This document shows positions 22,215 to 39,080 of a stretch of 64,000 nucleotides of DNA, one piece after another. Location: assembly GCA_963760875.1 (NCBI GenBank), contig CAVXEH010000014.1, forward strand, positions 216,538 to 280,537. The letters are read 5' to 3'. This stretch comes from an uncultured Chloroflexia bacterium. Its GTDB lineage: Bacteria > Chloroflexota > Limnocylindria > QHBO01. The number at the start of each line of letters is the position of its first letter. Position 1 is the first letter of the stretch. The notes under the pieces were generated by a model. That model was given only the letters and a program-made list of their open reading frames with translations, was not told the origin of the DNA and did no database searches. Position numbers and translations under genes: made by a program.

Positions 22215-23141
22215 TCACGCGGCGTTCTGGATCGCCGCGGACATCAGCGCGCGCGCCGCGTCAATGGGGATCGCGAAGCCCAGGCCCTGCGCGTCGGACG
22301 CGGTGGCGGTGTTGATGCCGATCACCTGCGCCGCAGCATTGACGAGCGGACCGCCACTGTTGCCCTGGTTGATGGCCGCATCGGTTTGGATCAGGCCGCT
22401 GAGCTGCTCGGCATTGCGCGGGCCGCTGCCGGCGGTGATCTGGCGGTCGAGGCCGCTGACGACGCCGGTGGTGACCGTGTTCGCGAACTGGCCGAGTGGG
22501 TCTCCAATGGCCACTACCAGCTGGCCCACCTGAAGGTCAGCGCTGGAGCCGATGGTGGCGACCGGCAGTCCCGTCGCGTTGACCTTGACAACGGCCAGGT
22601 CGGCCGCCGCGTCGGCCCTGACGACCGTACCGGGGAACTGGCGCCCGTCGGCCAGGGTCACGGTGATGGTGCCGCCGTCCGCGATGACGTGGTCGTTGGT
22701 GAGGATGTAGCCGTTCGCGTCGTAGATGAAGCCCGAGCCGATGCCCGTGGCCGTCCCACCGAAGCCGGCGCCCTGGGTCTCGATGACGACCACGGCGGGT
22801 CCCACGGACTTTGCCGCGGTGATCACCGCGGTGCTCTGGTCGCTGGTCGTGCTGGTGACGACCGACGCCGCCCGGGCGGTGGTCGAGGCCGATGGCTCAG
22901 CGGCAGCGGAGCCGCCGCTGAGCAGGGCTGCGGCACCCGCGCCGGCGCCGCCGCCGGCCACGATGCCAATGGTCACGGCCGCGACCGCGGTACGCAGCCA
23001 GCCGGGCGAGCGACGTGGCGGCTGGGGAGCGGCGGACTCGGGCAGGACGGTGGTGAGGAGGGTCACGGGCGCGGTGTCAGCTGGAGGAGTGGGGGTTGTG
23101 TCGACCGACCCGGAGAGGTCGGTGGGTTCGTTCGGATCCAT
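22215..23141 (-). CDS. Secreted trypsin-like serine protease (S1C, HtrA-like, without PDZ).
   Basis: Catalytic-triad contexts TNDHV, DLAVVKV and GNSGGPL. N-terminal TM/signal. Confidence 0.8.
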   Translation of the reverse strand: MDPNEPTDLSGSVDTTPTPPADTAPVTLLTTVLPESAAPQPPRRSPGWLRTAVAAVTIGIVAGGGAGAGAAALLSGGSAAAEPSASTTARAASVVTSTTSDQSTAVITAAKSVGPAVVVIETQGAGFGGTATGIGSGFIYDANGYILTNDHVIADGGTITVTLADGRQFPGTVVRADAAADLAVVKVNATGLPVATIGSSADLQVGQLVVAIGDPLGQFANTVTTGVVSGLDRQITAGSGPRNAEQLSGLIQTDAAINQGNSGGPLVNAAAQVIGINTATASDAQGLGFAIPIDAARALMSAAIQNAA

Positions 23142-23236
23142 GGGAGCTCGATTCCTCTGGTGTGCAGTGCCGATTCGTTGGTCCAAGCATGCGTCGCAAT
23201 TCTTTCGGACGGGTTACAGCCGGTGGGCTCGACGCC

Positions 23237-23254
23237 GTAACCGAACCGAAAGGC
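23237..23254 (+). promoter_or_regulatory. Conserved 18-nt motif CGTAACCGAACCGAAAGG (copy A), 78 nt upstream of the 23332 start.
   Basis: Identical or near-identical 18-mer at 25578 and 30851. Confidence 0.5.
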
Positions 23255-23331
23255 TGGGTCGCCCACGCTGCCGACCGTCACGGGAGCGGCCCGCTTCCCG
23301 AGGCCGATGCACCAGCACAGCGGAGAATCAC

Positions 23332-23928
23332 ATGACCATCTCGAGCACGACGCCCGATCAGCCGGAGGAGCGCGAGACCCGCGTCTTCACCCCGGCCGAG
23401 ACCGAGGTCGTCTTCCAGTCTCCCTTCACCGGCCCCGGCACCACCCGCCGCCGCGTCGGCGGCCTCTCGGCGGTGTCGCTCCTCCTTGCCCTCGCCGGCG
23501 TGGTCGCCATTGCCGGCGTCGCCTTCGCGGTCGGTCGCACCACCGCGGGCGGCGCGACAACCGACCTGCCGACGGGCGCCGGAGCCGGCGTCGGCAACAA
23601 CAACGGCACCGTCCCGAACCTGGGCGTACCCGGCGGGCGAGACGACAACGGCGTCAACGACGATGCCAACCGACCCGCCGAATCACGCAGCATCACCGGA
23701 ACGGTGACATCGGTCTCCGGCGGCACGCTCACCGTGCAGCTGGCCGGCGGCCAGACGGTGCAGGTCACCGTCGACGGCTCGACCACGTACCACAGCCAGA
23801 TTGCGGCATCGGCAGGCGATGTCTCGACCGGCAGCCAGGTCATCGTCTCGGTCTCGGGGTTCGGCCCGCCCGGCACCGACAGCGGCTCGCAACTCACGGC
23901 CAGTGACGTGACGATCGCGGGTCGCTGA
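23332..23928 (+). CDS. Membrane-anchored protein with a Thr-rich region and a C-terminal DUF5666-like beta domain.
   Basis: TM helix LSAVSLLLALAGVVAIAGVAFAV. TGTVTSVSGGTLTVQLAGGQTVQVTVDGSTTY repeat-like segment. Confidence 0.6.
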   Translation: MTISSTTPDQPEERETRVFTPAETEVVFQSPFTGPGTTRRRVGGLSAVSLLLALAGVVAIAGVAFAVGRTTAGGATTDLPTGAGAGVGNNNGTVPNLGVPGGRDDNGVNDDANRPAESRSITGTVTSVSGGTLTVQLAGGQTVQVTVDGSTTYHSQIAASAGDVSTGSQVIVSVSGFGPPGTDSGSQLTASDVTIAGR

Positions 23929-23945
23929 GCGGAGAATGGACGGGG

Positions 23946-25559
23946 ATGCCGGGATGGCACCCCAACCAGTATCGGTGCAGTGGGCGGGGTGGTCATGAGG
24001 TGAGCTTCGCGCGAAGGCACGCCGGGTTCCTGGCGGTCGCGTCCGCGGGTCTCGGACTTCGGGTGGTGCTCGCCTACCTGGCGTTCCCCAACCAGGGCCT
24101 GGAGACCGACCTCGGGTTCTTCCTGAGCTGGACGCGGACCCTGGGTGAGGTTGGTCCCGGCGCCTTCTACGCCAGCGCGGCGAGCGCGAACTATCCCCCG
24201 CTCTATCCGGCCATCCTGTGGGTGATGGGCCTGGCGGCGCACCCGCTGGCTGCGATCACAGGGAGCAGCCTGGACCAGGCGATGGTGGACCTGCTCAAGG
24301 TCCCTGCCATCACCGCGGACCTGCTCATCGCCCTCCTGCTGTACCGGGCGGGCTCCCGCTGGATCGGACGCCGCGCCGGCGTGGGCGCGGCGGCGCTGTA
24401 CCTATTCATCCCCGTTACCTGGTACGACTCCGCGCTGTGGGGGCAGGTCGACGCCGGCGGGACCCTGGTCATGCTGGGCGCGCTCCTGCTGCTGGTCGAG
24501 GGCTGGAGCGAGGCCGCGGCCGCCGTCGGCGCGCTCAGCATCCTGGTGAAGCCGCAGGACGCCATTGTGCTGGCGGTCATCGCGCCGGTCCTCGTCCGCC
24601 GCCATCTCCTGCGCGTCGGCAGCGGGCCGGCGCCTGCCCCTGGGCGGCGGCTCGCCTGGCTGGACCGCGCCCTGGGCGGGCTTCTGCACGAGCAGGGACC
24701 GGTGCGGCTGGGGACCTCGGCGGTTGCCGCGGGGCTCGCCGTCATCGTGCCGCTCCTGCCCTTCGACATCATCCGGCTCGCGCCCTCGAGCCTCTCCGAC
24801 GTCCCCGTCATCGGCCACGTGGCCGGGCTCGTCAGCCTGGTGCTCTCGCTTGGTGGCCAGTTCAGCGTGCTCACCGTCAATGCCTACAACGCGTGGGCGC
24901 TGGCGGGCCCGGCTCCCCTGGCGAGCATCATGGGCGGCGGCGGGTCGTGGACCCCGGACTCCATCGCCATCGTGGCGGGGATCCCGGCCTGGGCCCTTTC
25001 CGCGCTCCTCCTGGGGGGCGTCGCCCTGCTGGTCATGGTGGGGCTCCTGCGGCGCGACGGGTGGATGCCCATCTTCGGCGGCTTCGCCATCCTGGCCCTG
25101 GCGTTCTACCTCCTGCCTACCCGGGTGCACGAGCGCTATCTCTTCCCGTTCTTCGCGCCGGCTGCCCTGCTGGCCTCCCTGGCCGCCACACGCGTGGCCG
25201 GCTACGGCGCGCTGGGACTCCTCAACGTGGTCAACATCCACGCGGTGCTGGCCGCGCCGCTAGCGGTGACCTTCGGGGGCCGTGGATTCGGTGGCGGCGG
25301 AGGTGGGTTCGGCGGCGGAGACTTCGGTGGCGGGTTCCCCGGTGGCGGAGGCATCGGCTTCGGGAGGCTCATCAGCCAGATCTCCCTGCCGTTCGCGGAC
25401 CTCGCGCGGTCCGAGGTGGTGATCATCGCGGTCGCCCTGGGCCAGACGGCGGCGCTGGCGGGTCTCCTCGCGGTCTGGGTGGCGACCGTCATCCGTCCCA
25501 CCATCCCGTGGGTCGCCACGCAGAGGCGGGGGCAACCCGCCGTGCCCGGCCCAACATGA
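23946..25559 (+). CDS. GT-C fold membrane glycosyltransferase (GT39/GT87-like) with a Gly-rich C-terminal loop.
   Basis: More than 10 TM helices. YPPLYP... motif region. GGRGFGGGGGGFGGGDFGGGFPGGGGIGFG low-complexity loop like the GT39 at 31121. The start may be downstream (GTG near 24001). Confidence 0.65.
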   Translation: MPGWHPNQYRCSGRGGHEVSFARRHAGFLAVASAGLGLRVVLAYLAFPNQGLETDLGFFLSWTRTLGEVGPGAFYASAASANYPPLYPAILWVMGLAAHPLAAITGSSLDQAMVDLLKVPAITADLLIALLLYRAGSRWIGRRAGVGAAALYLFIPVTWYDSALWGQVDAGGTLVMLGALLLLVEGWSEAAAAVGALSILVKPQDAIVLAVIAPVLVRRHLLRVGSGPAPAPGRRLAWLDRALGGLLHEQGPVRLGTSAVAAGLAVIVPLLPFDIIRLAPSSLSDVPVIGHVAGLVSLVLSLGGQFSVLTVNAYNAWALAGPAPLASIMGGGGSWTPDSIAIVAGIPAWALSALLLGGVALLVMVGLLRRDGWMPIFGGFAILALAFYLLPTRVHERYLFPFFAPAALLASLAATRVAGYGALGLLNVVNIHAVLAAPLAVTFGGRGFGGGGGGFGGGDFGGGFPGGGGIGFGRLISQISLPFADLARSEVVIIAVALGQTAALAGLLAVWVATVIRPTIPWVATQRRGQPAVPGPT

Positions 25560-25577
25560 CCGCGACGCTCCCGCGCG

Positions 25578-25613
25578 CGTAACCGAGCCGAAAGGTTCGC
25601 TTCGCGAGACTGC
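25578..25613 (+). promoter_or_regulatory. Conserved motif copy B: CGTAACCGAGCCGAAAGG plus downstream CGCGAGACTGC, ending 5 nt before the 25618 start.
   Basis: Both sub-blocks are shared with copy C at 30851..30886. Confidence 0.5.
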
Positions 25614-25617
25614 GGGC

Positions 25618-25920
25618 ATGAAGACAGCGCAACGACTCTCCCCGGCACAGCGCAACCGCGCGATCGAGCGGCTTCGGGTGCTGACGGCGGGCGCAACGTT
25701 TGTCGGCGTCTCTGCAACCGTGGGCTTCAGCTGGGTTGCCGCAATGAGCAACCCCGGAACGCAGGCATCGGCGGCCGTCTCAACGACCTCGACCGGCTCG
25801 ACCACCTCCACCACTTCGAACGCATCGTCGACGAGCTCCTCGACCGGCTCGTCGCTGGGAACCACCATCATCGGCACCGGCACCAGTGGCCGGTCGCATG
25901 CGGCGAGCGGAGGATCCTGA
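25618..25920 (+). CDS. Small membrane-anchored Ser/Thr-rich protein.
   Basis: TM helix followed by ASAAVSTTSTGSTTSTTSNASSTSSSTGSSLGTT. First gene of a + strand operon. Confidence 0.45.
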   Translation: MKTAQRLSPAQRNRAIERLRVLTAGATFVGVSATVGFSWVAAMSNPGTQASAAVSTTSTGSTTSTTSNASSTSSSTGSSLGTTIIGTGTSGRSHAASGGS

Positions 25921-25922
25921 CC

Positions 25923-26852
25923 GTGATCCGGACCGCGACCTGGCGTGCCCTGGGCACCGGCGTGCGCCTCGTCACCAACGGCGGCCGGGCGGAGCGCGCA
26001 CGACGCGCCGTGGAGGAGCTCCTCGAGCTCGTCGACGCCACGTACAGCCGCTTCCGTGCCGACAGCGAGCTGTCCCGGCTCAATGCGCAGGCGGGGCAGA
26101 TCGTGCCGGTGAGCGGGCTTCTGACGAATGCGGTCGCCACGGCCCTGCGAGGCGCGCGGCTGAGCGGCGGACTCGTGGATCCGACGGTCGGGCGCGCCAT
26201 GCGCCTCATCGGCTACGACGACCACTTCGAGGTCATCTCGGCCCGGGCCGATGGCGCCCTGCGCTTCGAGCCGGTCCCCGGCTGGCAGGCGGTCCACCTC
26301 AACGAGGTGGCTCGAACCGTCCGCCTCGAACCAGGCGTTGAGCTCGACCTGGGATCCACCGGCAAGGCGCTGGCGGCCGATCTGGCCGCGGCCGCCGCCA
26401 ACCTGGTCATGCAAGGTGGCGGCGTCCTGGTCAGCCTGGGCGGCGACATCGCCGTGGCCGGTCTCGCGCCGGCAGGCGGCTGGCAGGTGCTGGCCGCTGA
26501 GAACCATGCGGCCCGGGTGGATGCCGATGGCGAGACCATCACCCTCACGGAGGGCGGCATCGCCACCTCGAGCATCACGGTCCGGCGCTGGACACGCCAG
26601 GGAATCGGTCTCCACCACCTGGTCGACCCGCGCACGGGCCGGCCCGTGGACAGCCCCTGGCGGACGGCAAGCGTGGCGGCCGCCACCTGCGTCGACGCCA
26701 ACATCGCCGCCACGGCCGCGATCCTCCTTGGCGAGCATGCAGCGGCCTGGCTCGCTGAGCGCAGCCTTCCGGCGCGCCTCGTCGCCAACGACGGAACCAT
26801 CCGGCGCGTGGCCGGCTGGCCGGCACCCGAGCCCGTGGCGGTGCCGGCATGA
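25923..26852 (+). CDS. apbE: FAD:protein FMN transferase (ApbE family).
   Basis: LDLGSTGKALAAD and the ApbE core. 309 aa. Confidence 0.8.
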   Translation: MIRTATWRALGTGVRLVTNGGRAERARRAVEELLELVDATYSRFRADSELSRLNAQAGQIVPVSGLLTNAVATALRGARLSGGLVDPTVGRAMRLIGYDDHFEVISARADGALRFEPVPGWQAVHLNEVARTVRLEPGVELDLGSTGKALAADLAAAAANLVMQGGGVLVSLGGDIAVAGLAPAGGWQVLAAENHAARVDADGETITLTEGGIATSSITVRRWTRQGIGLHHLVDPRTGRPVDSPWRTASVAAATCVDANIAATAAILLGEHAAAWLAERSLPARLVANDGTIRRVAGWPAPEPVAVPA

Positions 26853-27433
26853 TCGAGAGCCTGCTGTGGTACGCCACCCGCGGCGCGGGCATTGCGTCGC
26901 TGCTCATGCTCACGGGCGTTGTCGCCCTGGGCGTGCTGACCGCCGTTCGCTGGCAGCGGCCGGGATGGCCGCGGTTCCTGAGCGCGGAGTTCCACCAGGC
27001 CGTCAGCCTGCTGACGCTGGTCTTCCTGGGCATCCACATCCTCATCGCGGTCCTCGATCCCTACACCTCGCTGGGCGTGGATGCAGCGCTGCTGCCGTTC
27101 TCGTCACCGTACCGGCAGATCTGGCTTGGCCTGGGCGGCGTGGCGATGTACCTCATCGCCGCCATCGTCATCACCAGCCTCCTGCGCCCGCACTTCGGCC
27201 GGCGCACGTGGCGGGTCATCCACTGGCTCACCTACGCGGCGTGGCCGATGGCGCTGATCCACGGGATCGGCACGGGTTCCGACACCGGCGCCGTCTGGAT
27301 GTGGGCCTTGGATGGCCTGTGCCTGCTGACCGTCGGCGCGGCTGTGGCGTGGAGAGCGAGCGCCGCCGACGAGGCGCTCGTCGTCAAGGACGCGGCACTG
27401 CCGCCGTCCGGGTCGCAACGGGTGACCAGATGA
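26849..27433 (+). CDS. Ferric-reductase-like transmembrane heme-binding protein (MsrQ/FRD-type).
   Basis: Six TM helices with conserved His pairs (HQAVSLLTLVFLGIHILIAV...HWLTYAAWPMALIHGIG). Confidence 0.65.
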   Translation: MIESLLWYATRGAGIASLLMLTGVVALGVLTAVRWQRPGWPRFLSAEFHQAVSLLTLVFLGIHILIAVLDPYTSLGVDAALLPFSSPYRQIWLGLGGVAMYLIAAIVITSLLRPHFGRRTWRVIHWLTYAAWPMALIHGIGTGSDTGAVWMWALDGLCLLTVGAAVAWRASAADEALVVKDAALPPSGSQRVTR

Positions 27434-28680
27434 CCACCGTGGCGACGAGCCCCTACCGCCTCCTGGCCGGGCCCCGCTTCGAGCAGGGCCCCGAGCCGTA
27501 CGCCGAGCATGTCACCCGCCTGGGCGAGCCGCCGTACGGGTTCGCCGGGCCGCGGCTCATCGACAGTCTCGAGCGCAGCGGCCTGCTGGGCCGCGGCGGG
27601 GCGGGGTTTCCGGTGGGTCGCAAGTGGCGGGCCGTGGCCCAGCGAGCGCGTCGCGGGGCGGTGGTGATCGCCAACGGCGCCGAGGGCGAGCCGCGCTCGG
27701 CAAAGGACCGCGCGCTTCTCACCCTGCGGCCGCACCTCGTCCTGGACGGGGCCATCCTCGCCGCGCTCAGCGTGGGGGCGGACACCGTGCGTGTCTACGT
27801 GGGCACCGAGCACCGCGAGGCGGTGCGTGCCATGGCCAACGCGCTCGCCGAACGACCCCGGGTGCGCGGCCTGAGCCTGGAGCTGGTGGAGGCGCCGACC
27901 GGCTATGTCTCGGGCGAGTCGAGCGCTGTGGTCCGGTACCTCAACGAGCACGACGCGCGGCCCTCCACAACGCCGCCGCGCCCGTACGAGCGCGGGGTCC
28001 GCGGCCGGCCCACCCTGGTCCAGAACGTGGAGAGCCTGGCCTATGCGGCGCTCATCGCCCGCCACGGGGCAGCGTGGTACCGCGAGGCCGGGCGCGGCGA
28101 AACGCGCGGGACGGCCCTGGTGACCGTGACCGGCCCTGTCGCCGAACCCGGCGTGCGCGAGATCGAGTACGGCACCAGCCTCCGCGAGCTGATCGAGTCC
28201 GCCGGCGGCCGGCCGGAGGACGTGGGGGCGGTGCTGATCGGCGGGTACTTCGGCGGCTGGACCGCCGCGGCCGAGCTCCTCGACATGCCCCTGGACCCCG
28301 CCGCGCTCGCCGCCATCGGCCTCGGCTTCGGCTGTGGCCTGGTCGGGCTGCTGCCCGCCGGCTCGTGCGGCGTGTGGGCAACCGAGCAGATCATGACCTA
28401 CATGGCCGGCGAGAGCGCTCGCCAGTGCGGACCGTGCATCTTTGGCCTGGGCGCCATGGCCACCAGCCTGCGACGGCTGGCGACCGGCGGACCCGCGAGG
28501 GACGATCTGCCGAACCTGGACCGATGGTCGGTGGAGATCGCCGGTCGAGGGGCCTGTCACCATCCCGATGGCGCGGCCGCGCTGCTGCGCAGCGGGCTCT
28601 CGGTCTTCGCCGACGAGTTCGCCCTGCACGCCGCGGGTGGCTGCTCCAGCCCGCCGCGGCACGCGAGGGAGATGGCGTGA
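27430..28680 (+). CDS. NuoF-like NADH-binding FMN and 4Fe-4S flavoprotein (51-kDa subunit homolog).
   Basis: GRGGAGFPVGRKW, SGESSA, ESARQCGPCIFG match NuoF/NqrF-family FMN, NADH and Fe-S motifs. Confidence 0.75.
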   Translation: MTTVATSPYRLLAGPRFEQGPEPYAEHVTRLGEPPYGFAGPRLIDSLERSGLLGRGGAGFPVGRKWRAVAQRARRGAVVIANGAEGEPRSAKDRALLTLRPHLVLDGAILAALSVGADTVRVYVGTEHREAVRAMANALAERPRVRGLSLELVEAPTGYVSGESSAVVRYLNEHDARPSTTPPRPYERGVRGRPTLVQNVESLAYAALIARHGAAWYREAGRGETRGTALVTVTGPVAEPGVREIEYGTSLRELIESAGGRPEDVGAVLIGGYFGGWTAAAELLDMPLDPAALAAIGLGFGCGLVGLLPAGSCGVWATEQIMTYMAGESARQCGPCIFGLGAMATSLRRLATGGPARDDLPNLDRWSVEIAGRGACHHPDGAAALLRSGLSVFADEFALHAAGGCSSPPRHAREMA

Positions 28681-28946
28681 TGCGCCTGCGACTGGCGATC
28701 GACCGCATCCGTTGCGACGGCTACGGCATGTGCGCCGAGATCCTCCCCGAGATGATTGCCCTCGACGACTGGGGCTACCCGATCCTGCGCGACGCGCCCA
28801 TCCCCGGGCACCTGCTCGAGCTGGCGCAACGTGCCGTGGACATCTGCCCCGTCCTGGCCCTGCGCCTGGACCCGGTCCTGCGCGACGCGGCGCGCGACGT
28901 CGTGCGCGAGCGCCGGACGGAGGGAACGCTCCTCGGAGGAAGATGA
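28680..28946 (+). CDS. Small ferredoxin.
   Basis: IRCDGYGMCAEILPE...DICPV cluster-binding pattern. ATG overlaps the upstream stop by 1 nt. Confidence 0.65.
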   Translation: MRLRLAIDRIRCDGYGMCAEILPEMIALDDWGYPILRDAPIPGHLLELAQRAVDICPVLALRLDPVLRDAARDVVRERRTEGTLLGGR

Positions 28947-28950
28947 GCCC

Positions 28951-29619
28951 ATGCGCATCCTCGTGGCCGAGGACGATCCCGGCCTTCAGCAGATCATCGC
29001 CCTGGGCCTGCGGGACGCGGGATATCACGTCGACACGGTGGACCGCGGGGACGACGCCATCGACTACATGACGTGGTACGAGTACGACGTCGCGGTCATC
29101 GACTGGCGCATGCCGGGCGCGGAGGGCATTGACGTGGTCGCCTGGGCGCGGCGCCACGAGCGCCCCACGGCCCTCCTGATGCTCACCGCGCGTGACGCGC
29201 CGGCGGACCGCATCCGCGGCCTGGACACCGGCGCGGACGACTACCTGGTCAAGCCCTTCGACTTCGGGGAGCTGCTGGCCCGTATCCGGGCCCTGCAGCG
29301 GCGACCGCGTGGCATCGGCGGGCCGGTGCTGGAGCGCGGCAGGGTCTCGCTGGACCCGGCGAAGCGCGAGGTGGCCGTAGGCGACCACCCGTTGGCTTTG
29401 ACCGGCACCGAATACCTCATCCTCGAGGTCCTGATGCGCCGATCCCCGGCGGTGGTCGACCGCAAGGCGATTGCCGAGCATGCCTGGGCCGACGAGACCG
29501 ACCCGCTCGGCTCCAACGCCATCGACGTCCAGATGAGCCGCCTGCGGGCGAAGCTCCCCAACGCCGGGATTCGGATCGTCACCGTGCGCGGCGCCGGCTA
29601 TCGCCTGGAGGAGGCATGA
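28951..29619 (+). CDS. OmpR-family response regulator.
   Basis: Receiver MRILVAEDDPGLQ...DVAVIDWRMPG. Winged-helix C-terminal ...VRGAGYRLEEA. Confidence 0.85.
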   Translation: MRILVAEDDPGLQQIIALGLRDAGYHVDTVDRGDDAIDYMTWYEYDVAVIDWRMPGAEGIDVVAWARRHERPTALLMLTARDAPADRIRGLDTGADDYLVKPFDFGELLARIRALQRRPRGIGGPVLERGRVSLDPAKREVAVGDHPLALTGTEYLILEVLMRRSPAVVDRKAIAEHAWADETDPLGSNAIDVQMSRLRAKLPNAGIRIVTVRGAGYRLEEA

Positions 29620-30842
29620 GCGTGGCGGGCCCCCACCACGACGTGCGTCGCGCCTCGATCCGCGTTGCGCTGAGCACCACCGGCGCCGTGGCCGTGGTGT
29701 ACATCGTGGTGGCCATCGCCTTCTTCGCGATCGTCTCGACCAACCTGACCCGCCAGGTGGACGACCGGCTGACCGCCGCCTTGAGCCAGTCCCAGCCCGT
29801 GGGCAGCGGCTCCGGCGAGGAGCCGCCGGAGGGGCCCCATGATCGACCCCTTGGGCCACCGGTCCTGGTCTGGCTCATCCGCAGTGACGGCAGCGTGCTC
29901 ACCACGGTGAACGCGTCGCTGCCGACGCAGTATGCCGACGTCACCAGCCCCACCACGGCGACCATCAACGGGACCTCCGTGCGGCTCGCGGGCACCGACG
30001 TCGCTGGCGGCCACGTCATCGTTGGCCAGGACATCACCGACATCGGCCGCAGCCAGTCGAACCTGATCCTGGCCGAGGTCCTCATCGGCCCCATCCTGCT
30101 CATCCTCGTCTTTGGCGGAGCCGTCTTCGTGGGACGGCGGGTGGCCACGCCCATCGAGAGCGCCCGGCGTCGCCAGCTCGACTTCTCCGCCGACGCTTCG
30201 CACGAGCTGCGCACCCCGCTGTCGGTCATCGAGGCCAACACCAGCCTGGCGCTCTCCGAACCGCGCACCGCGGAGTGGTACCGCACCGCCTTCGAGCGGG
30301 TGAGCGGCGAGTCGGCGCGCATGCGCCGGCTGCTCGACGACCTGCTGTGGCTGTCGCGCTTCGACGCGCGTCGCGGGCAGCCCGACGCGGAGCCGGTGGA
30401 CCTGGGGATCATGGCGGCGCAGGCGGTGGACCGCTTCCGGGCCATCGCGGAGCAGCGCCACCTGGCGCTGAGCCTGGACGCCGCGGAGGGGCAGGTCATC
30501 AGCGCCCCGCCCGACTGGCTCGACCGCCTGCTGGGCGTGCTCCTCGACAACGCCTGCAAGTACTCACCGCAGGATGGTGCCGTGGCGGTATCGGTCCAGA
30601 CCGATGGCGGCCGCACCACGCTAAGCGTCGACGACACTGGTCCGGGCATTCCGGTGGAGCAGCGCCCGCGCATCTTCGACCGCTTCCACCGCGCTACCGA
30701 GAGCGGGTCGGGAGCCGGCCTGGGATTGGCCATCGCCGACGAGGTGGTGCGCGCCACCGGTGGCCGATGGCGCCTGGAGACCTCGCCGCGCGGCGGCGCG
30801 AGGATGTCGGTCAGCTGGCCACGGGGACGCCTCGCCACCTGA
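29616..30842 (+). CDS. Sensor histidine kinase (two TM, HAMP-like, HisKA, HATPase_c).
   Basis: H-box SHELRTPLSVI. N/G boxes DDTGPGIP...GSGAGLGLAIA. Start overlaps the response-regulator stop. Confidence 0.85.
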   Translation: MSVAGPHHDVRRASIRVALSTTGAVAVVYIVVAIAFFAIVSTNLTRQVDDRLTAALSQSQPVGSGSGEEPPEGPHDRPLGPPVLVWLIRSDGSVLTTVNASLPTQYADVTSPTTATINGTSVRLAGTDVAGGHVIVGQDITDIGRSQSNLILAEVLIGPILLILVFGGAVFVGRRVATPIESARRRQLDFSADASHELRTPLSVIEANTSLALSEPRTAEWYRTAFERVSGESARMRRLLDDLLWLSRFDARRGQPDAEPVDLGIMAAQAVDRFRAIAEQRHLALSLDAAEGQVISAPPDWLDRLLGVLLDNACKYSPQDGAVAVSVQTDGGRTTLSVDDTGPGIPVEQRPRIFDRFHRATESGSGAGLGLAIADEVVRATGGRWRLETSPRGGARMSVSWPRGRLAT

Positions 30843-30850
30843 CCCCCCGG

Positions 30851-30886
30851 CGTAACCGAACCGAAAGGCACCGGGCGCGAGACTGC
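30851..30886 (+). promoter_or_regulatory. Conserved motif copy C: CGTAACCGAACCGAAAGG plus CGCGAGACTGC, immediately after the histidine-kinase stop and upstream of the GtrA-like/GT39 genes.
   Basis: See copies A and B. Confidence 0.5.
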
Positions 30887-30950
30887 CGTCAATGTCCATC
30901 ACGACCGCGCCGCCACTCGTCCGGCAGGCCCGGCCATCACCAGCGTTGCG

Positions 30951-31124
30951 GTGGTCGTCCTGCACGAGATCACCGCGACGCCACCCCGCACCGTGGAGCT
31001 CGTCGTGCTCATCGGCGCCAACGGACTTGCGACGGTCGTCCGCTTCGTCATGCTTCGCGCATGGATCGACCGGGGCCGACGACCGTCAGCGACCAGCGCC
31101 CAGCTGAGAAAGGCCCTGTCATGA
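30951..31124 (+). CDS. Possible GtrA-family small membrane protein. It may be an N-terminally truncated or frameshifted remnant.
   Basis: The frame after the HK stop translates ...PAITSVAVVVLHEITATPPRTVELVVLIGANGLATVVRFVMLRAWIDRGRRP. This resembles the C-terminal half of GtrA proteins (..N.l...NFllnR.W.F.). The TGA overlaps the GT39 ATG (ATGA). GTG start at 30951. It is absent from the ORF track because it is under 60 codons. Confidence 0.3.
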   Translation: MVVLHEITATPPRTVELVVLIGANGLATVVRFVMLRAWIDRGRRPSATSAQLRKALS

Positions 31125-33055
31125 CCTCCATCTCCCGCCCGTCCACCGAGACGGCACTCCACCGTCGGCCCGGTGTGCCGGGCCTGGCGACCCTGGTTCG
31201 GGGCCGCGCGGACGAGGCTGCGTGGGTCCGGCCCGCGTTCTGGGGGGTCACCGCGCTGGCCGCGGTCCTCTACGTCGTCAACCTCACCGTCTCGGGGTTC
31301 GCGAACACCTACTACTCGGCCGCCGCCCTTGCCGCCAGCCAGAGCTGGTCGGCGTGGTTCTTCGGCAGCTTCGATGCCGCGAACTTCATCACCGTCGACA
31401 AGCCGCCGCTGGCCACCATGTTCATGGGCCTCTCCGTCCGGGTCTTTGGCCTCTCGTCGTGGAGCGTCCTGCTCCCGGAGGCGCTGGCCGGGGTAGCGGG
31501 CGTGGCGCTCCTGTGGGCCATCGTGAAGCGCTCGTACGGGCCGGCGGCAGCCACCATCGCGGCGCTGGTCATGGCCCTCACCCCGGCCGCGGTCCTCATC
31601 TTCCGCTACAACAACCCCGACGCCCTGCTGACCCTCCTGCTCGTCGGCGCCGCGGGCGCGTTCCTGCGCTCGCTGGAGAAGGGCCGCGTCCGCTGGGTCG
31701 TGCTGGCCGCGGTCCTGGTGGGCTTCGCCTTCAACACCAAGCTCCTGCAGGCCTACCTGGTGCTCCCCGTCTTCGCCGTCACCTACCTCATCGCGGCACC
31801 GGGCTCCGTCCTGCGGCGCCTTGGCATCCTGGGCATCGCTCTGGTGACCGTCCTGGTCAGCAGCAGCTGGTGGGTGCTCGGGACCCTCCTGTCATCCACG
31901 CATCCGTTCATCGGCGGATCCACCAACAACTCCGCCCTGGACCTGATCTTCGGGTACAACGGCCTGGCGCGGATCTTTGGCAACACCTTTGGCGGCGGGG
32001 GCGGTGGTCCGGGGGGCGGCTTCGCCGGTGGTCCGGGCGGCTTCGGTGGCGGCGGTGGCTTCTCCGGCACGCCGGGCCTGCTTCGGCTCTTCAACAGTGA
32101 GCTCGGTGGCCAGGTCGCCTGGCTCCTCCCCTTCTCCCTGGTCGGCATGGTGGCAGGCCTCGCCCTGCGCTGGCGCACCCCGCGCACGGATCCGCGGCGC
32201 GCGGCCGCCCTCATGTGGGGCGGCTGGCTGGTGGTGACCGCGGCCACGTTCAGCTTCATGTCGGGGATCATCCACAGCTACTACGCGGTGGCCCTGGCGC
32301 CGGCGATTGGCGCGCTCGTGGGCATCGGCATCGTGGAGCTGTGGTCCTGGCGCCGACGATCCATTGCCGGTGGCCTGGTGCTGGGCGCGACGATCCTGGG
32401 CAGCGGGCTCCTTGCCTGGCAGCTCCTCGAGCGGACGCCCGCCTTCGCGCCCGGCCTGGGCCTGGTCGTCCTGGGCGTGTCCGCGGTGGTGGCGCTGATC
32501 GTCGCCCTGCCGCACGACGAGCACCAGCGCCACACCCAGATGGCCGCCGTCGCCCTGGGTGTGGCGATCCTCCTTGCCGCTCCCGGCACCTACGCGGTGG
32601 ACACCATGCTCACCGCGCACTCCGGCGGCGACCCTGCGGCCGGGCCGAGCGCCGGCAACTTCGGCGTCGGTGGCGGCGGGCCGGGAGCGGCCTCGACCGA
32701 CTCCGCCCTGATCCAGTACCTGCTCGCCAACCAGGATGGCGCCACCTGGATCGTCGCCACCACATCGGCCCAGGAAGCCGGATCGCTGGAGCTGGCGGCG
32801 GGCGCGCCGGTCATGGCCATGGGCGGATTCAACGGCAGTGACCCTGCCCCGACCCTGGACGAGTTCAAGGCCCTGGTGGCCGCCGGCAAGATCAGGTACG
32901 TGCTGGTCAGCGGACGGGGCGGGTTCGGCGGTCCCGGCCGTGGCTCGTCCTCCGTGTCGGCCATCGACACCTGGGCGGCCTCGGTCGGCACCCAGGTTGC
33001 CTATGGCGGCAGCGCCACCCTCTACGACCTGTCGTCCCTCGCCACTGCGAGCTGA
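31121..33055 (+). CDS. Glycosyltransferase family 39 (PMT/ArnT-like protein O-mannosyltransferase) with a Gly-rich loop and a C-terminal periplasmic domain.
   Basis: N-terminal GT39 region (VDKPPLATMFMGLSVRVFG..., many TM helices). GGGGGPGGGFAGGPGGFGGGGGFSG loop. Long C-terminal soluble domain. Confidence 0.75.
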   Translation: MTSISRPSTETALHRRPGVPGLATLVRGRADEAAWVRPAFWGVTALAAVLYVVNLTVSGFANTYYSAAALAASQSWSAWFFGSFDAANFITVDKPPLATMFMGLSVRVFGLSSWSVLLPEALAGVAGVALLWAIVKRSYGPAAATIAALVMALTPAAVLIFRYNNPDALLTLLLVGAAGAFLRSLEKGRVRWVVLAAVLVGFAFNTKLLQAYLVLPVFAVTYLIAAPGSVLRRLGILGIALVTVLVSSSWWVLGTLLSSTHPFIGGSTNNSALDLIFGYNGLARIFGNTFGGGGGGPGGGFAGGPGGFGGGGGFSGTPGLLRLFNSELGGQVAWLLPFSLVGMVAGLALRWRTPRTDPRRAAALMWGGWLVVTAATFSFMSGIIHSYYAVALAPAIGALVGIGIVELWSWRRRSIAGGLVLGATILGSGLLAWQLLERTPAFAPGLGLVVLGVSAVVALIVALPHDEHQRHTQMAAVALGVAILLAAPGTYAVDTMLTAHSGGDPAAGPSAGNFGVGGGGPGAASTDSALIQYLLANQDGATWIVATTSAQEAGSLELAAGAPVMAMGGFNGSDPAPTLDEFKALVAAGKIRYVLVSGRGGFGGPGRGSSSVSAIDTWAASVGTQVAYGGSATLYDLSSLATAS

Positions 33056-34667: not shown

Positions 34668-35366
34668 CTAGACGCTAACCCCGATCAGGCTGCCCACGCC
34701 GAAGGTGACCGCGGCGGCAACGCCGCCCAGGGCGAGCTGGCGCAGGCCGGTGAGGAGCGGGCTCCGGCGGGTGAGGATGCTGACGCCCACGCCCAGCAGG
34801 AACAGGGCGACCAGGCTGACGCCCAGGCTGGTCGCGAACGCCAGCCCGCCCGCGGTGAGCAGGTAGGGCACCAGCGGGATCAGGGCACCCAGGGTGAAGG
34901 CGAAGAAGGAGCCGATGCCGGCCGCCCACGGTGACCCGATGGAGCGGGCGTCGAGGCCCACCTCCTCGAAGATGAGCAGGCGGGTCGCGGCCTCGGGGTC
35001 GGCGAAGACGCGGCTGACGAAGGTCTCCGCCTCGTCCTGGGTGAAGCCTCGGTCGCGATAGATGCCGATGAGGATCCCGCGCTCCTGGTCGGATGCCTCC
35101 CGCAGCTGGTGGCGCTGGAAGGCGAGCTGGTAGGCGAGCAGCTCCTGCTGGCTCTTCACGCTGATGTACTCGCCCACGCCCATGCTGAAGGCGCCGGCCA
35201 GGAGGCCCGCGATCCCGGCCAGGACGATGATGCCCGGCGCCGGATTCGCGCCTGCGACGCCCATGACCAGGGCCAGGTTGGAGACGAGCCCGTCGTTGCC
35301 GCCAAAGACCACCGGGCGCAGGACGCTGATGAGCCGCGTCTCGTGCGGCGAGGAGGGATCCGGCAT
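34668..35366 (-). CDS. VIT1/CCC1 family iron/manganese transporter.
   Basis: VIT-family N-terminal FGGNDGLVSNLALVMGVAGA and five TM helices. Start refined to MPDPSS. Confidence 0.75.
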   Translation of the reverse strand: MPDPSSPHETRLISVLRPVVFGGNDGLVSNLALVMGVAGANPAPGIIVLAGIAGLLAGAFSMGVGEYISVKSQQELLAYQLAFQRHQLREASDQERGILIGIYRDRGFTQDEAETFVSRVFADPEAATRLLIFEEVGLDARSIGSPWAAGIGSFFAFTLGALIPLVPYLLTAGGLAFATSLGVSLVALFLLGVGVSILTRRSPLLTGLRQLALGGVAAAVTFGVGSLIGVSV

Positions 35367-35687
35367 GGTCGGCGGGTGGAGGAAGGGGATGCGTCGGACC
35401 ATCGGCGCCCATTGGAGCGTCCGCGGCCCTTCAGCGCAAGGGGCCGAACGGACCCGATCGGCAGGACCTCGACCCATGGCCGGGCCACGGCGTCAGCTGG
35501 TGATGTCATCACCGCTACGACCGGCGAGCGCCCGGAGCCGACGCGATGCACCGCTGCCAACGGTCATATCGGCGGCCAGGTCACCTGATCGGCCGAGGAA
35601 CCGCCTCAGTGGCGCCGCGCGGGTCCCTCCGACGGTCGCAGTGATGACCTCACGACCACGCCGGCCCGCGGCCGGCCGGTCCGCGAT

Positions 35688-38501: not shown

Positions 38502-39080
38502 GTGATTGGGACCGTCCCGTACATGGGGGTGGCGAGGGTGGAGGACGTGGAGGCGGTGCGAATCGAGTCGCAATCGGCTCGGGCGGCCGCCTTTGCCGCC
38601 CTGGTGGACGGGCAGCTCGACGCCGGATACCGGCTCGCCACCTTCATCCTCGGTGACCGCGAGGAAGCGGCCGATGCCACGCAGGAGGCGGCTGCGGATG
38701 CCTGGCAACGCTTCGGCTCGCTGCGCGATCACGACCGGTTCGCGGCGTGGTTCCAGCGGATCGTGGTGAACCAGTGCCGGGACCGGCTACGGAGCAGGCG
38801 GCGCCGCCCTGGACCGATGCCGGCCTTCGACCTCGTCAGTCGCGACTCGACCCCGGACGTCGACGAGCGTCAGGCCCTCGCCCAGGCGCTGGCAGGGCTA
38901 ACGCCGGGGCATCGCGCGGTGATCGCGCTGCGCTACCTGGCCGATCTGCCGACGGCCGAGATCGCGGCACGGCTGGGCGAGCGGCCGGGGACCGTCCGCT
39001 CTCGCCTCCATTACGCCCTGCGCGAGCTGCGGGCAGCGCATGACGCGGCGCAGCGCCTGCCCAGGGATCCACGGCCATGA
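38502..39080 (+). CDS. ECF (sigma-70 family) RNA polymerase sigma factor.
   Basis: Region 2 (...ATQEAAADAWQRF...FAAWFQRIVVNQCRDRLR) and region 4 (LTPGHRAVIALRYLADLPTAEIAARLGERPGTVRSRLHYALRELR). Start may be ATG at 38523. Confidence 0.8.
   Translation: MIGTVPYMGVARVEDVEAVRIESQSARAAAFAALVDGQLDAGYRLATFILGDREEAADATQEAAADAWQRFGSLRDHDRFAAWFQRIVVNQCRDRLRSRRRRPGPMPAFDLVSRDSTPDVDERQALAQALAGLTPGHRAVIALRYLADLPTAEIAARLGERPGTVRSRLHYALRELRAAHDAAQRLPRDPRP

Follow-up and report, generated by a model that had tools for sequence, protein, structure and literature searches.

The 64,000-nt stretch of DNA analysed here (hereafter the window) carries four copies of an 18-bp box, which is a putative operator and quite probably that of the OmpR/PhoB-family response regulator (RR) encoded at 28951-29619; as such it would define an autoregulated envelope regulon. 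The mechanism would be an ordinary one, namely a textbook activator site of the OmpR/PhoB type, and a literature search retrieved no description of a regulon that joins a protease, glycosyltransferases and a flavin redox module.

The repeated box and its genomic context

The repeated 18-base motif is real. Indeed, the pattern CGTAACCGARCCGAAAGG has exactly three matches in the window, all on the plus strand (23236-23253, 25578-25595 and 30851-30868), with 0.11 expected by chance and three or more matches in none of 100 shuffles. The initial annotation had already listed three plus-strand copies, at 23237, 25578 and 30851; the last two positions are exact and the first is off by one base. The relaxed core GTAACC-N4-CGAAAG has four matches in the window versus 0.03 expected, the additional one being an exact minus-strand copy (23202-23217) that had been missed and that is predicted to drive an HtrA-like protease gene, so that the promoters number four and not three. 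The boxes are as follows:

23201-23218, minus strand: box P, TGTAACCCGTCCGAAAGA, the fourth copy, facing the HtrA-like protease gene
23236-23253, plus strand: box A, CGTAACCGAACCGAAAGG
25578-25595, plus strand: box B, CGTAACCGAGCCGAAAGG, in the predicted promoter of an operon whose last two genes encode the RR and the histidine kinase (HK)
30851-30868, plus strand: box C, CGTAACCGAACCGAAAGG, 8 nt 3' of the HK stop codon

Boxes P and A are divergent and 19 nt apart, and a divergent pair is also present in the related locus L001 (3588, minus strand; 3623, plus strand). The conserved unit is C-GTAAC-n6-GAAAG-G, i.e. two CGWAASS half-sites (CGTAACC and CGAAAGG) offset by 11 bp. Among the sites of the lineage scan described below, position -1 is a C in 81/90 and position +17 a G in 70/82, by which each half-site grows to 7 nt, with a register of 11 bp, and the n4 spacer is weakly constrained and differs from site to site (GGAT, CGTC, CATT and others). 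The tandem ACCGA-ACCGA, initially read as the direct repeat, falls largely within this variable spacer. When the flanks of the three plus-strand copies were aligned, no similarity was found beyond the 18-mer and a downstream block, CGCGAGACTGC; the copies are therefore not part of a larger duplicated element, and a duplicated repeat or a mobile element was ruled out as their origin.

The genes around the boxes are the following:

22215-23141, minus strand: HtrA-like serine protease of the trypsin fold (Pfam Trypsin_2, 4e-35)
23332-23928, plus strand: protein with one TM segment and, at its C-terminus, a weak DUF5666-like domain (E = 0.006, under the cut-off)
23946-25559, plus strand: 537-aa polytopic membrane protein, candidate divergent PMT_2-type (GT-C) glycosyltransferase, assigned via its orthologs
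25618-25920, plus strand: 100-aa single-TM S/T-rich protein with the C-terminus HAASGGS-COOH
25923-26852, plus strand: ApbE flavin transferase (Pfam, 1e-48)
26849-27433, plus strand: MsrQ-like ferric-reductase transmembrane component (PF01794)
27430-28680, plus strand: NuoF-like FMN/NAD(H)-binding iron-sulfur protein
28680-28946, plus strand: small 4Fe-4S ferredoxin (Fer4_15)
28951-29619, plus strand: OmpR/PhoB-family RR, proposed binder of the box, recognition helix SNAIDVQMSRLRAKL
29616-30842, plus strand: cognate HK, its extracytoplasmic loop measuring about 110 aa
30892-31124, plus strand: GtrA-like remnant, truncated and frameshifted, about 225 nt of the 5' half being absent relative to L001
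31121-33055, plus strand: 644-aa GT-C glycosyltransferase with PMT_2 and YkcB_C domains

This gene context corresponds overall to the initial annotation, apart from the 537-aa glycosyltransferase candidate, which has no Pfam match of its own, and the GtrA-like gene, which proved to be truncated and out of frame. The protease, whose start is likely the ATG at 23141 preceded by GAGGAA, scores 218 bits against the NCBIfam HtrA model, under the cut-off, and no PDZ domain was detected in it. Many orthologs of the 537-aa protein (52-77% identity) carry PF13231 (PMT_2); comparisons of the protein itself with the PMT_2 protein of the window (BLASTP) and with PDB sequences gave no match, so that its family assignment comes only through the Pfam matches of these orthologs. 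The 644-aa glycosyltransferase fails the test against the Pmt equivalog NF058602 (23 bits for a cut-off of 800), and with PMT_2 and YkcB_C domains as the sole indications, the protein O-mannosylation function that had been attributed to these genes is not established. The RR combines a Response_reg (4e-26) and a Trans_reg_C domain (2e-18) according to Pfam, matches the PhoB models of NCBIfam below the cut-off, and has BasR, RegX3, MtrA and PhoP as its closest relatives in the PDB.

Predicted promoter architecture downstream of the box

A hexamer of the form nAnnnT, mostly GAGACT, is located 10-11 nt 3' of the box. Copies B and C have CGCGAGACTGC in common, beginning 7 nt past the 18-mer, as had been noticed initially, and a weaker form, CGCCCACGCTGCC, is found equally far from copy A. 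The block is predicted to be the -10 region of a promoter and not a second operator, with the following hexamers:

23186-23191, minus strand: predicted -10 hexamer CATGCT of the protease promoter (P), 10 nt past the box core
23264-23269, plus strand: predicted -10 hexamer CACGCT of promoter A
25606-25611, plus strand: predicted -10 hexamer GAGACT of promoter B, with the ATG at 25618 6 nt after it
30879-30884, plus strand: predicted -10 hexamer GAGACT of promoter C, with the ATG at 30892 7 nt after it

In loci picked by HK homology alone, a sample of 24 boxes that is unbiased as to the hexamer, an nAnnnT hexamer follows at 10 or 11 nt in every case (24/24), and an ATG or GTG comes 6-7 nt after it in 14/24, one further site having a GTG at 4 nt. 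The 90 lineage sites of the motif scan show a spacing between box and hexamer of 11 nt in 82 cases, 10 nt in 8 and 12 nt in none, versus 14, 9 and 4 for the same spacings in the chance matches outside the lineage. Likewise, an ORF of 50 aa or more begins 6-7 nt past the hexamer at 58/90 lineage sites versus 2/27 chance matches. With an ATG at this distance in both promoters B and C, the corresponding mRNAs are probably leaderless, whereas the position of the promoter A hexamer would give a 5' UTR of about 56 nt, in which GGAG precedes the ATG at 23332. The position under a -35 element is occupied by the variable n4 spacer or by a part of the box and is never TTGACA-like, and neither a canonical sigma-70 promoter nor an intrinsic terminator was found in the region 22900-31300. 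The box is used in both orientations, each copy facing its own gene.

Conservation of the box and linkage to the two-component system

A scan for the box plus GAGACT was carried out over 185,579 species genomes; it demanded this hexamer and both half-sites, and yields neither the full regulon nor an unbiased logo. It returned 90 sites within the Limnocylindria/CSP1-4 lineage and 27 chance matches outside of it. The window itself belongs to this lineage of Chloroflexota and is not actinobacterial. At 80/90 of the lineage sites the genes downstream belong to the cluster's own families, and scattering over unrelated or intragenic sites, which the initial annotation had named as a ground for refutation, is not what is observed. 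In about 80 related genomes of uncultured soil Chloroflexota, the box stands before these same gene families, all organisms that carry it being uncultured and represented by MAGs. It precedes the homologs of the genes that come first in their operons (protease, 10/10; DUF5666-like protein, 7/8; small protein, 6/6; GtrA, 22/31) and was not found before genes internal to the operon (HK, 0/50; NuoF-like, 0/21; ferredoxin, 0/20). The motif is also present at orthologous promoters in relatives: box B is kept in the related loci L001, L003 and L005, and box C in L001, L003/L004 and L007.

As regards the kinase, boxes are restricted to cases with an HK of about 52% identity or more (11 matches versus 1.65 in shuffles). 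No box was found with distant HK homologs from metagenomes (<50% identity), and most of their upstream regions are unrelated, which makes the box untraceable outside the clade. Among 85 motif-selected loci of 8 kb, an RR at least 65% identical is present in 43 and the HK in 42, versus neither of them in any of the 27 chance loci; for the remaining half or so, 8 kb may be too short a stretch to include the RR. Where an RR-HK pair is on its own, a box precedes the RR gene at no more than 300 nt from the gene start (13 of 56 RR genes). Furthermore, three loci of a sister RR clade present another repeat, GTCATG-N5-GTCAYG, followed by TAGACA and then by a leaderless RR gene, and their recognition helix reads SNT[LI]DVH.ARLR versus SNAIDVQ.SRLR, which is invariant in the box clade.

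Three features of this operator class are found together here, namely (i) an RR with a receiver domain and a winged-helix Trans_reg_C domain encoded within the regulon, (ii) half-sites in tandem direct repeat at a distance of roughly one turn of the helix (10-11 bp), as in OmpR/PhoB operators, and (iii) a fixed place of the box, which replaces the -35 element about 10 bp before the -10 hexamer, as for class II activators. On conservation and specificity, the core of the initial proposal, an OmpR-type box with a regulon that includes its own operon, thus passes both of the checks that had been set for it; its three-promoter set and its ACCGA repeat do not stand.

Proposed mechanism and alternative explanations

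Following a presumed signal at the kinase, a phosphorylated RR dimer would occupy both CGWAASS half-sites head-to-tail, with a distance of 11 bp between their centres. The box would lie at about -40 to -23, in place of a -35 element, and the bound RR would recruit the RNA polymerase holoenzyme to a weak -10 element of the form nAnnnT (GAGACT, CACGCT, CATGCT) 10-11 nt downstream; in the case of B and C, the first transcribed base would be the A of the ATG. Promoter P would serve the HtrA-like protease, promoter A the DUF5666-like protein and the PMT_2-like membrane glycosyltransferase, promoter B the small HxxSGGS protein, ApbE, the MsrQ-like, NuoF-like and ferredoxin proteins, the RR and the HK, and promoter C the GtrA remnant and the PMT_2/YkcB_C glycosyltransferase. 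The presence of the RR and HK genes in the promoter B operon would result in positive autoregulation of the system, and the protease promoter shifts the theme towards an envelope-stress regulon.

It is unlikely that the box is bound by another transcription factor encoded elsewhere, either of the OmpR family or GlnR-like, with the RR-HK pair as a mere target. Such a factor would fit the resemblance of GTAAC-n6-GAAAG to actinobacterial GlnR a/b sites, the second RR-HK pair that L007 has beside a box and the presence of the RR within 8 kb in only about half of the motif-selected loci, and the actual binder could be an OmpR-family paralog from another part of these genomes; however, the targets have no relation to nitrogen metabolism, the genomes or loci with the box are only those with the HK identity given above, stand-alone RR-HK pairs carry the box before the RR gene, and the box clade has an invariant recognition helix, that of the clade with another repeat being different. 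Repression by the same RR on the same box, through occlusion of the -35 region, appears improbable: a protein bound over -40 to -23 could indeed block RNA polymerase, but the -35 position never resembles TTGACA, no canonical promoter was detected, and the placement is identical to that of the activating PhoB, CiaR and GlnR boxes.

The AAC-containing -35 elements of some ECF sigma factors resemble GTAAC, and the window contains an ECF sigma gene 7.6 kb further on (38502-39080); L001 and L003 have one too. A reading of the motif as the -35/-10 signature of such a factor is nevertheless very unlikely, given that three blocks are conserved and not two, that the distances to the hexamer (21 nt from GTAACC, 11 nt from CGAAAG) are respectively too long and too short for the usual 16-17 nt, and that the downstream element has the A2/T6 of a housekeeping -10 and not CGT. 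Moreover, ECF-like genes occur in only 5/85 motif loci versus 43 for the RR, and no box is found near the ECF gene of the window; an ECF promoter identity was rejected on these spacings and on the missing linkage. The initial annotation had left a 5'-UTR RNA element as an alternative. An action of the motif as RNA, in a 5' UTR or at a 3' end, for instance through a C-GAAA-G tetraloop hairpin in copy B, has hardly any probability. Copy B folds to -24.6 kcal/mol (z = -2.27), and across sites the n4 spacer shows an excess of G-U-tolerant pairing with the 3' flank (z 3.8 versus site shuffling). On the other hand, the folds of copies A, C and P are poorer than those of shuffled sequence (z +0.9 to +1.9), the excess disappears for Watson-Crick pairs only (z 0.9), a stem of at least four extra pairs is present in only 19/90 sites, many of them mutually orthologous, and an inverted repeat around GAAAG in a pentaloop register gave no excess pairing across sites. 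A known RNA family was rejected, with no relevant Rfam match at E <= 1 and unconvincing folding for three of the four copies. In addition, the fixed 10-11 nt to the -10 hexamer, followed by an ATG 6-7 nt on, would place the box upstream of the transcript, and the box functions in both orientations, each towards its own gene. With G-U pairs allowed, a subset of boxes including copy B could form the GAAA-tetraloop hairpin, and the operator model does not need it.

Comparison with known systems

Among the members of the CiaR regulon are htrA and genes for modification of the cell envelope, and several homologs of the HK are labelled 'CiaH' in JGI/KEGG. The CiaR box is TTTAAG-N5-TTTAAG, 10 nt before the -10 element (PMC3091779). 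The box described here shares with that of streptococcal CiaRH a 6-N5-6 direct repeat that replaces the -35 element 10 nt before the -10 hexamer, but the hexamers differ (TTTAAG versus CGTAAC and CGAAAG), as do the phyla; unlike in CiaRH, no small-RNA targets were seen here and the promoters appear to be largely leaderless. The pho box is located 10 bp upstream of the -10 element, with activation via sigma region 4 (PMC1906773). Both it and the box presented here consist of two tandem direct repeats with an 11-bp period, substitute for a -35 element and belong to the same RR family, whereas the half-site sequences, the non-phosphate targets and the single dimer site per promoter distinguish the present system from Escherichia coli PhoB.

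The a and b sites of GlnR are separated by n6. They read gTnAc and GaAAC and are bound head-to-tail around the -35 position (PMC10235972). The half-sites GTAAC and GAAAG come close to them in the same order, the last base differing from that of the GlnR b site. Unlike GlnR, which is an orphan regulator of nitrogen genes with usually two boxes (four sites), the system of the window has a single a-b pair per promoter, a cognate HK and envelope/redox targets in a Chloroflexota lineage, and an actinobacterial GlnR regulon was excluded on these grounds. BasR, of the PmrAB/BasSR system that controls arnT, is among the closest solved relatives of the RR. In PmrAB-arnT as well as in CpxAR, MprAB and CssRS-HtrA, an autoregulated two-component system drives a PMT-like GT-C protein and/or an HtrA-family protease. 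Unlike in these systems, there is no lipid A pathway here and the sensor domain of the kinase is unrelated by annotation.

Limnocylindria (CSP1-4/Ellin6529) are abundant, uncultured soil Chloroflexota, and a literature search found no work on gene regulation in this class. A putative operator and promoter architecture is now defined at the sequence level for them, with evidence for frequent leaderless transcription; for one conserved two-component system this amounts to a specific regulon that can be put to the test, in which ApbE/MsrQ-like extracytoplasmic redox modules are tied to the envelope functions of HtrA and GT-C proteins. With the box, members of the regulon become predictable in new MAGs, and it can also serve in the interpretation of soil metatranscriptomes; its value is one of annotation and hypothesis generation, not of new principles.

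The small S/T-rich protein and its possible flavinylation

The sections of Meheust et al. 2021 (PMC8238504) considered here report MsrQ-like flavinylation systems that associate ApbE, a PF01794 membrane protein, a NuoF-like subunit and VIT1, place such clusters mainly in Actinobacteria, and make no mention of their transcriptional control by two-component systems. The promoter B operon has exactly the associations given in these sections, i.e. ApbE, a PF01794 MsrQ-like protein and a NuoF-like protein, with a VIT1 gene near the operon. Unlike typical flavinylation clusters, it encodes the small protein with a C-terminal HxxSGGS in place of an FMN_bind-domain protein, none of which was found in the operon with Pfam.

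A word search with the small protein retrieved close relatives only, and its wider family was found by profile search. The C-terminus of the family, [H/Q][V/A][T/S][T/S]GGS, matches the motif of FMN_bind-domain substrates, D-x-x-[S/T]-G-A-[S/T], at positions 4, 5 and 7 only. Judging from its sequence, the S/T-rich protein may be a target of ApbE flavinylation as much as a glycosylation substrate. It is a rather doubtful but broader idea that a single two-component system, with a regulon present throughout Limnocylindria, couples extracytoplasmic flavin electron transfer to HtrA proteolysis and two GT-C glycosyltransferases, and that the commonest first gene of its operons, which encodes a membrane-tethered protein of about 100 aa ending in [H/Q]xx[S/T]GGS-COOH, specifies a new minimal ApbE substrate with a natural C-terminal flavin tag. 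By analogy with MgrB-like peptides, the small protein could also feed back on the kinase.

Conserved boxes in the window

The 18-mer CGTAACCGARCCGAAAGG occurs three times in the window, always on the + strand (boxes A, B and C), against 0.11 matches expected by chance, and three or more matches were found in none of 100 shuffles, which reproduces the repeat reported in the initial annotation. Relaxing it to the core GTAACC-N4-CGAAAG recovers a further exact copy on the minus strand (box P), so that the three copies described initially stand but their total does not: the core has four matches versus 0.03 expected in this window of 71% G+C. When the 170 nt around each + strand copy were aligned, similarity was confined to the 18-mer and a short block, CGC-sAsrCT-GC, located 7-10 nt 3' of it and common to all three; as conservation stops there, the copies are not parts of a larger repeat. 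The 18-mer is a real, strongly conserved and promoter-associated element, and its copies are arranged as follows.

Boxes and associated features in the window
23186-23191, - strand: predicted -10 hexamer of the box P promoter
23202-23217, - strand: box P, pointing at the gene of an HtrA-like trypsin-fold protease (22215-23141)
23236-23253, + strand: box A, heading two genes, for a DUF5666-like protein and then a 537-aa polytopic protein
25578-25595, + strand: box B, heading a tightly packed, overlapping string of seven genes that ends with the response regulator (RR, 28951-29619) and histidine kinase (HK, 29616-30842) genes
30851-30868, + strand: box C, 8 nt past the HK stop codon, heading a GtrA-like remnant and a PMT_2/YkcB_C glycosyltransferase gene

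Boxes P and A form a divergent pair separated by 19 nt, a layout also kept in L001, a homologous locus from a relative (3588-, 3623+). The first product behind box A has a single TM segment and a weak DUF5666-like domain; the second product has no Pfam match of its own, and PMT_2 is present in many of its orthologs. Box B is followed, in order, by genes for an S/T-rich protein of 100 aa with one TM segment, ApbE, an MsrQ-like membrane protein of the ferric-reductase type, a NuoF-like protein, a small ferredoxin, the RR and the HK. The GtrA-like gene 3' of box C (30892-31124) is truncated: its 5' half lacks about 225 nt in comparison with the intact 150-aa GtrA of L001 (11278-11730). The ATG after promoter C does not share the reading frame of the GtrA C-terminus that is left, which points to a pseudogene or to a deletion introduced by assembly. 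The PMT_2 gene that follows is intact.

Box and promoter architecture

The anatomy of the box was examined in 24 sites from loci picked by HK homology alone (the window, L001, L003, L005, L007 and L120-L129) and in the 90 sites of the Limnocylindria lineage from the genome scan described below, whose search pattern included GAGACT. An nAnnnT hexamer (GAGACT, GACACT, CACGCT, CATGCT and CAATCT among others) lies 10 or 11 nt 3' of the 16-nt core in all 24 HK-selected sites; ATG or GTG follows 6-7 nt past the hexamer in 14 of them, and GTG at 4 nt in one more. Among the lineage sites, 82 have a spacing of 11 nt and 8 one of 10 nt, with no case of 12 nt, versus 14, 9 and 4, in the same order, among 27 chance matches from other phyla. 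A start codon 6-7 nt past the hexamer opens an ORF of at least 50 aa in 58/90 lineage sites versus 2/27 chance matches.

Within the lineage sites, C directly precedes GTAACC in 81/90, G directly follows CGAAAG in 70/82, and the middle four bases are weakly constrained ([G/C][G/A][T/A][C/T]); therefore, the conserved unit is CGTAACC-n4-CGAAAGG. It is a direct repeat of two CGWAASS half-sites spaced with a period of 11 bp; an equivalent notation is GTAAC-n6-GAAAG. The ACCGA-ACCGA tandem, initially taken as the meaningful repeat, falls largely in the variable part of the box and was abandoned. If transcription from promoter B started at the ATG, the box would span about -40 to -23. Neither a canonical sigma-70 promoter nor an intrinsic terminator was found in 22900-31300, which fits activator-dependent promoters that would lack a -35 element.

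This layout is like that of CiaR activator boxes (TTTAAG-N5-TTTAAG, 10 nt ahead of the -10; PMC3091779) and of the PhoB pho box, for which the -10 lies 10 bp downstream (PMC1906773). It is also like that of GlnR, whose half-sites (a site gTnAc, b site GaAAC) are the nearest in sequence; GlnR binds head-to-tail around -35 and, when bound, contacts sigma region 4 and the beta flap (PMC10235972). However, the window RR has a cognate kinase, envelope/redox targets and a single a-b pair per promoter, and the system is thus not a GlnR regulon.

Conservation and putative target genes

All four box positions are kept in L001 (HK 85% identical), and subsets of them in L003/L004 (75%), L005 (68%) and L007 (58%), so the box is retained at orthologous promoters of relatives, and its absence there, named as a refutation in the initial annotation, was not observed. 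L007 is devoid of the ApbE operon; its RR gene start is preceded, at about 110 nt, by a box. A scan of 185,579 species, one genome each, with GTAAYC-N4-CGAAAG-N{10,12}-GAGACT returned 112 stretches, about 85 of which are from Chloroflexota or carry the same gene families; the other 27 are scattered over other phyla with no related genes downstream. The MAGs holding HK homologs and scan matches are titled 'Candidatus Limnocylindrales bacterium', 'Chloroflexi bacterium CSP1-4' or 'uncultured Chloroflexia bacterium' and belong to the Chloroflexota, class Limnocylindria. The window itself is not actinobacterial.

At 80/90 lineage sites, the 3.5 kb that follow the site encode families found in the cluster itself (small protein, ApbE, MsrQ-like, RR, GtrA/PMT_2, protease). 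When a box was sought within 300 nt upstream of each gene, it was found before operon-first genes and not before the HK, NuoF-like, ferredoxin and 537-aa glycosyltransferase genes; the motif is hence not scattered over unrelated or intragenic sites, the other refuting outcome named in the initial annotation.

Box occupancy per gene family (gene family; position; genes with box upstream)
Protease; operon-first; 10/10
DUF5666-like; operon-first; 7/8
Small protein; operon-first; 6/6
GtrA; operon-first; 22/31
RR; first only if heading an operon; 13/56
MsrQ-like; internal promoter in some genomes; 13/33
HK; internal gene; 0/50
NuoF-like; internal gene; 0/21
Ferredoxin; internal gene; 0/20
537-aa glycosyltransferase; internal gene; 0/6

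Some relatives have a second box, placed within apbE or just past its end and directly before the MsrQ-like gene (L076 2775, L080 7055; also L033, L071, L092 and L114-L116). This extra box probably acts as an internal promoter; none is present at the apbE/MsrQ-like junction of the window. A NOX/FRE-like ferric reductase (PF01794 + FAD_binding_8 + NAD_binding_1; L042, L111) and an S/T-rich HlyD-like adaptor protein (L050, L064) are also box-preceded and are candidate additional regulon members elsewhere, missing from the window.

Proposed regulator of the box

The best explanation is that the box serves as operator for the neighbouring OmpR/PhoB-family RR, in an autoregulated regulon of four window promoters that would comprise the HtrA-like protease, two GT-C glycosyltransferase operons and the ApbE/MsrQ-like redox module with the two-component genes; systems of this kind are well known, and the lineage here is uncultured. 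Box B heads the operon that contains the RR and HK genes, and among 85 motif-selected 8-kb loci an RR at least 65% identical is encoded in 43 and the HK in 42, with neither found in the 27 chance-match loci; autoregulation by this RR, as put forward initially, is the preferred reading of these sequences. Of 80 metagenome loci selected for HK homology (28-73% identity), only those whose HK is at least about 52% identical have boxes (11 matches versus 1.65 in shuffles).

The strongest indirect evidence comes from a sister RR clade (50-52% identical; L136 4453, L141 1402, L144 9250, + strand). In these three loci, the RR promoter reads GTCATG-N5-GTCAYG, about 9 nt, TAGACA and then a leaderless RR start codon: the layout is that of the box clade but the hexamer differs. 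The recognition helix is SNT[LI]DVH.ARLR in the sister clade and invariant SNAIDVQ.SRLR in the box clade, and the altered positions are presumably the base-contacting ones, by analogy with PhoB. Such co-variation of helix and repeat at constant architecture suggests that the cognate RR reads the box. Even so, another regulator may bind it, or the RR may repress instead of activating; we infer RR binding, regulation direction, transcription starts and the kinase signal from sequence. The RR passes no NCBIfam equivalog cut-off (nearest models RppA, CopR/CztR and PmrA), and BasR is among the solved structures closest to it.

Reading the motif as an ECF sigma promoter fails, since spacings of 21 nt and 11 nt do not suit such a promoter and gene linkage is poor, an ECF-like sigma gene being present in just 5/85 motif-selected loci. 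An RNA element, the alternative offered in the initial annotation for a 5'-UTR location, has little support: there is no Rfam match, folding is no better than that of shuffled sequence for three of the four copies, the box is 5' of the inferred transcription start, and it appears functional in either orientation, as each copy points at a gene of its own. In its favor, the n4 spacer and 3' flank can form a C-GAAA-G tetraloop hairpin, G-U pairs allowed, in copy B (25584-25600) and at 19/90 sites, with a modest pairing excess over site shuffling of z 3.8 with G-U versus z 0.9 for Watson-Crick pairs only. Because many hairpin sites are mutually orthologous, the signal may be an artefact of their kinship; alternatively, the hairpin may form at the 3' end of transcripts that read through from upstream.

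An ECF sigma factor gene (38502-39080, +) is encoded in the window, followed by a 761-aa ORF (39077-41362, +) that has no Pfam match and is possibly an anti-sigma factor; no box lies near this ECF gene. A similar pair is found near the cluster in L001 and L003 and is absent from most motif-selected loci.

Redox module and small protein

The ApbE, MsrQ-like, NuoF-like and ferredoxin genes (25923-28946) correspond to the MsrQ-like ApbE-associated systems of Meheust et al. (PMC8238504), where they are mainly actinobacterial and associations with NuoF-like and VIT1 are noted. A VIT1 iron-transporter gene (34668-35477, -) lies downstream of the module, as does an ArsR-methyltransferase pair; neither has a box.

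The operon-first small protein (25618-25920) belongs to a family of S/T-rich single-TM proteins of about 95-125 aa, comprising 294 clusters at E <= 1e-3 in a profile search (member sequences P0241-P0405), and no Pfam family covers it. GGS occurs within the last few residues in 118 of the best 149 of these 294 clusters, the typical, highly conserved C-terminus being [H/Q][V/A][T/S][T/S]GGS-COOH. This end resembles the seven-residue ApbE flavinylation motif D-x-x-[S/T]-G-A-[S/T], a motif that performs best when placed at a protein terminus (PMC12052999). Because of this likeness, the position of its gene directly upstream of apbE, the lack of any FMN_bind-domain protein in the redox operon and the paralogs that also head GtrA/PMT_2 operons, three roles are conceivable for the small protein: a minimal substrate of flavinylation, a substrate of glycosylation, or a peptide acting in feedback.

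Both glycosyltransferase candidates contain long, low-complexity Gly/Phe-rich loops, GGGGGGFGGGDFGGGFPGGGG and GGGGGPGGGFAGGPGGFGGGGGF, located at 25275-25350 (537-aa protein) and about 32080-32160 (PMT_2 protein), and in L131 and L133 proteins whose genes precede that of the RR have similar G/F-rich tails.
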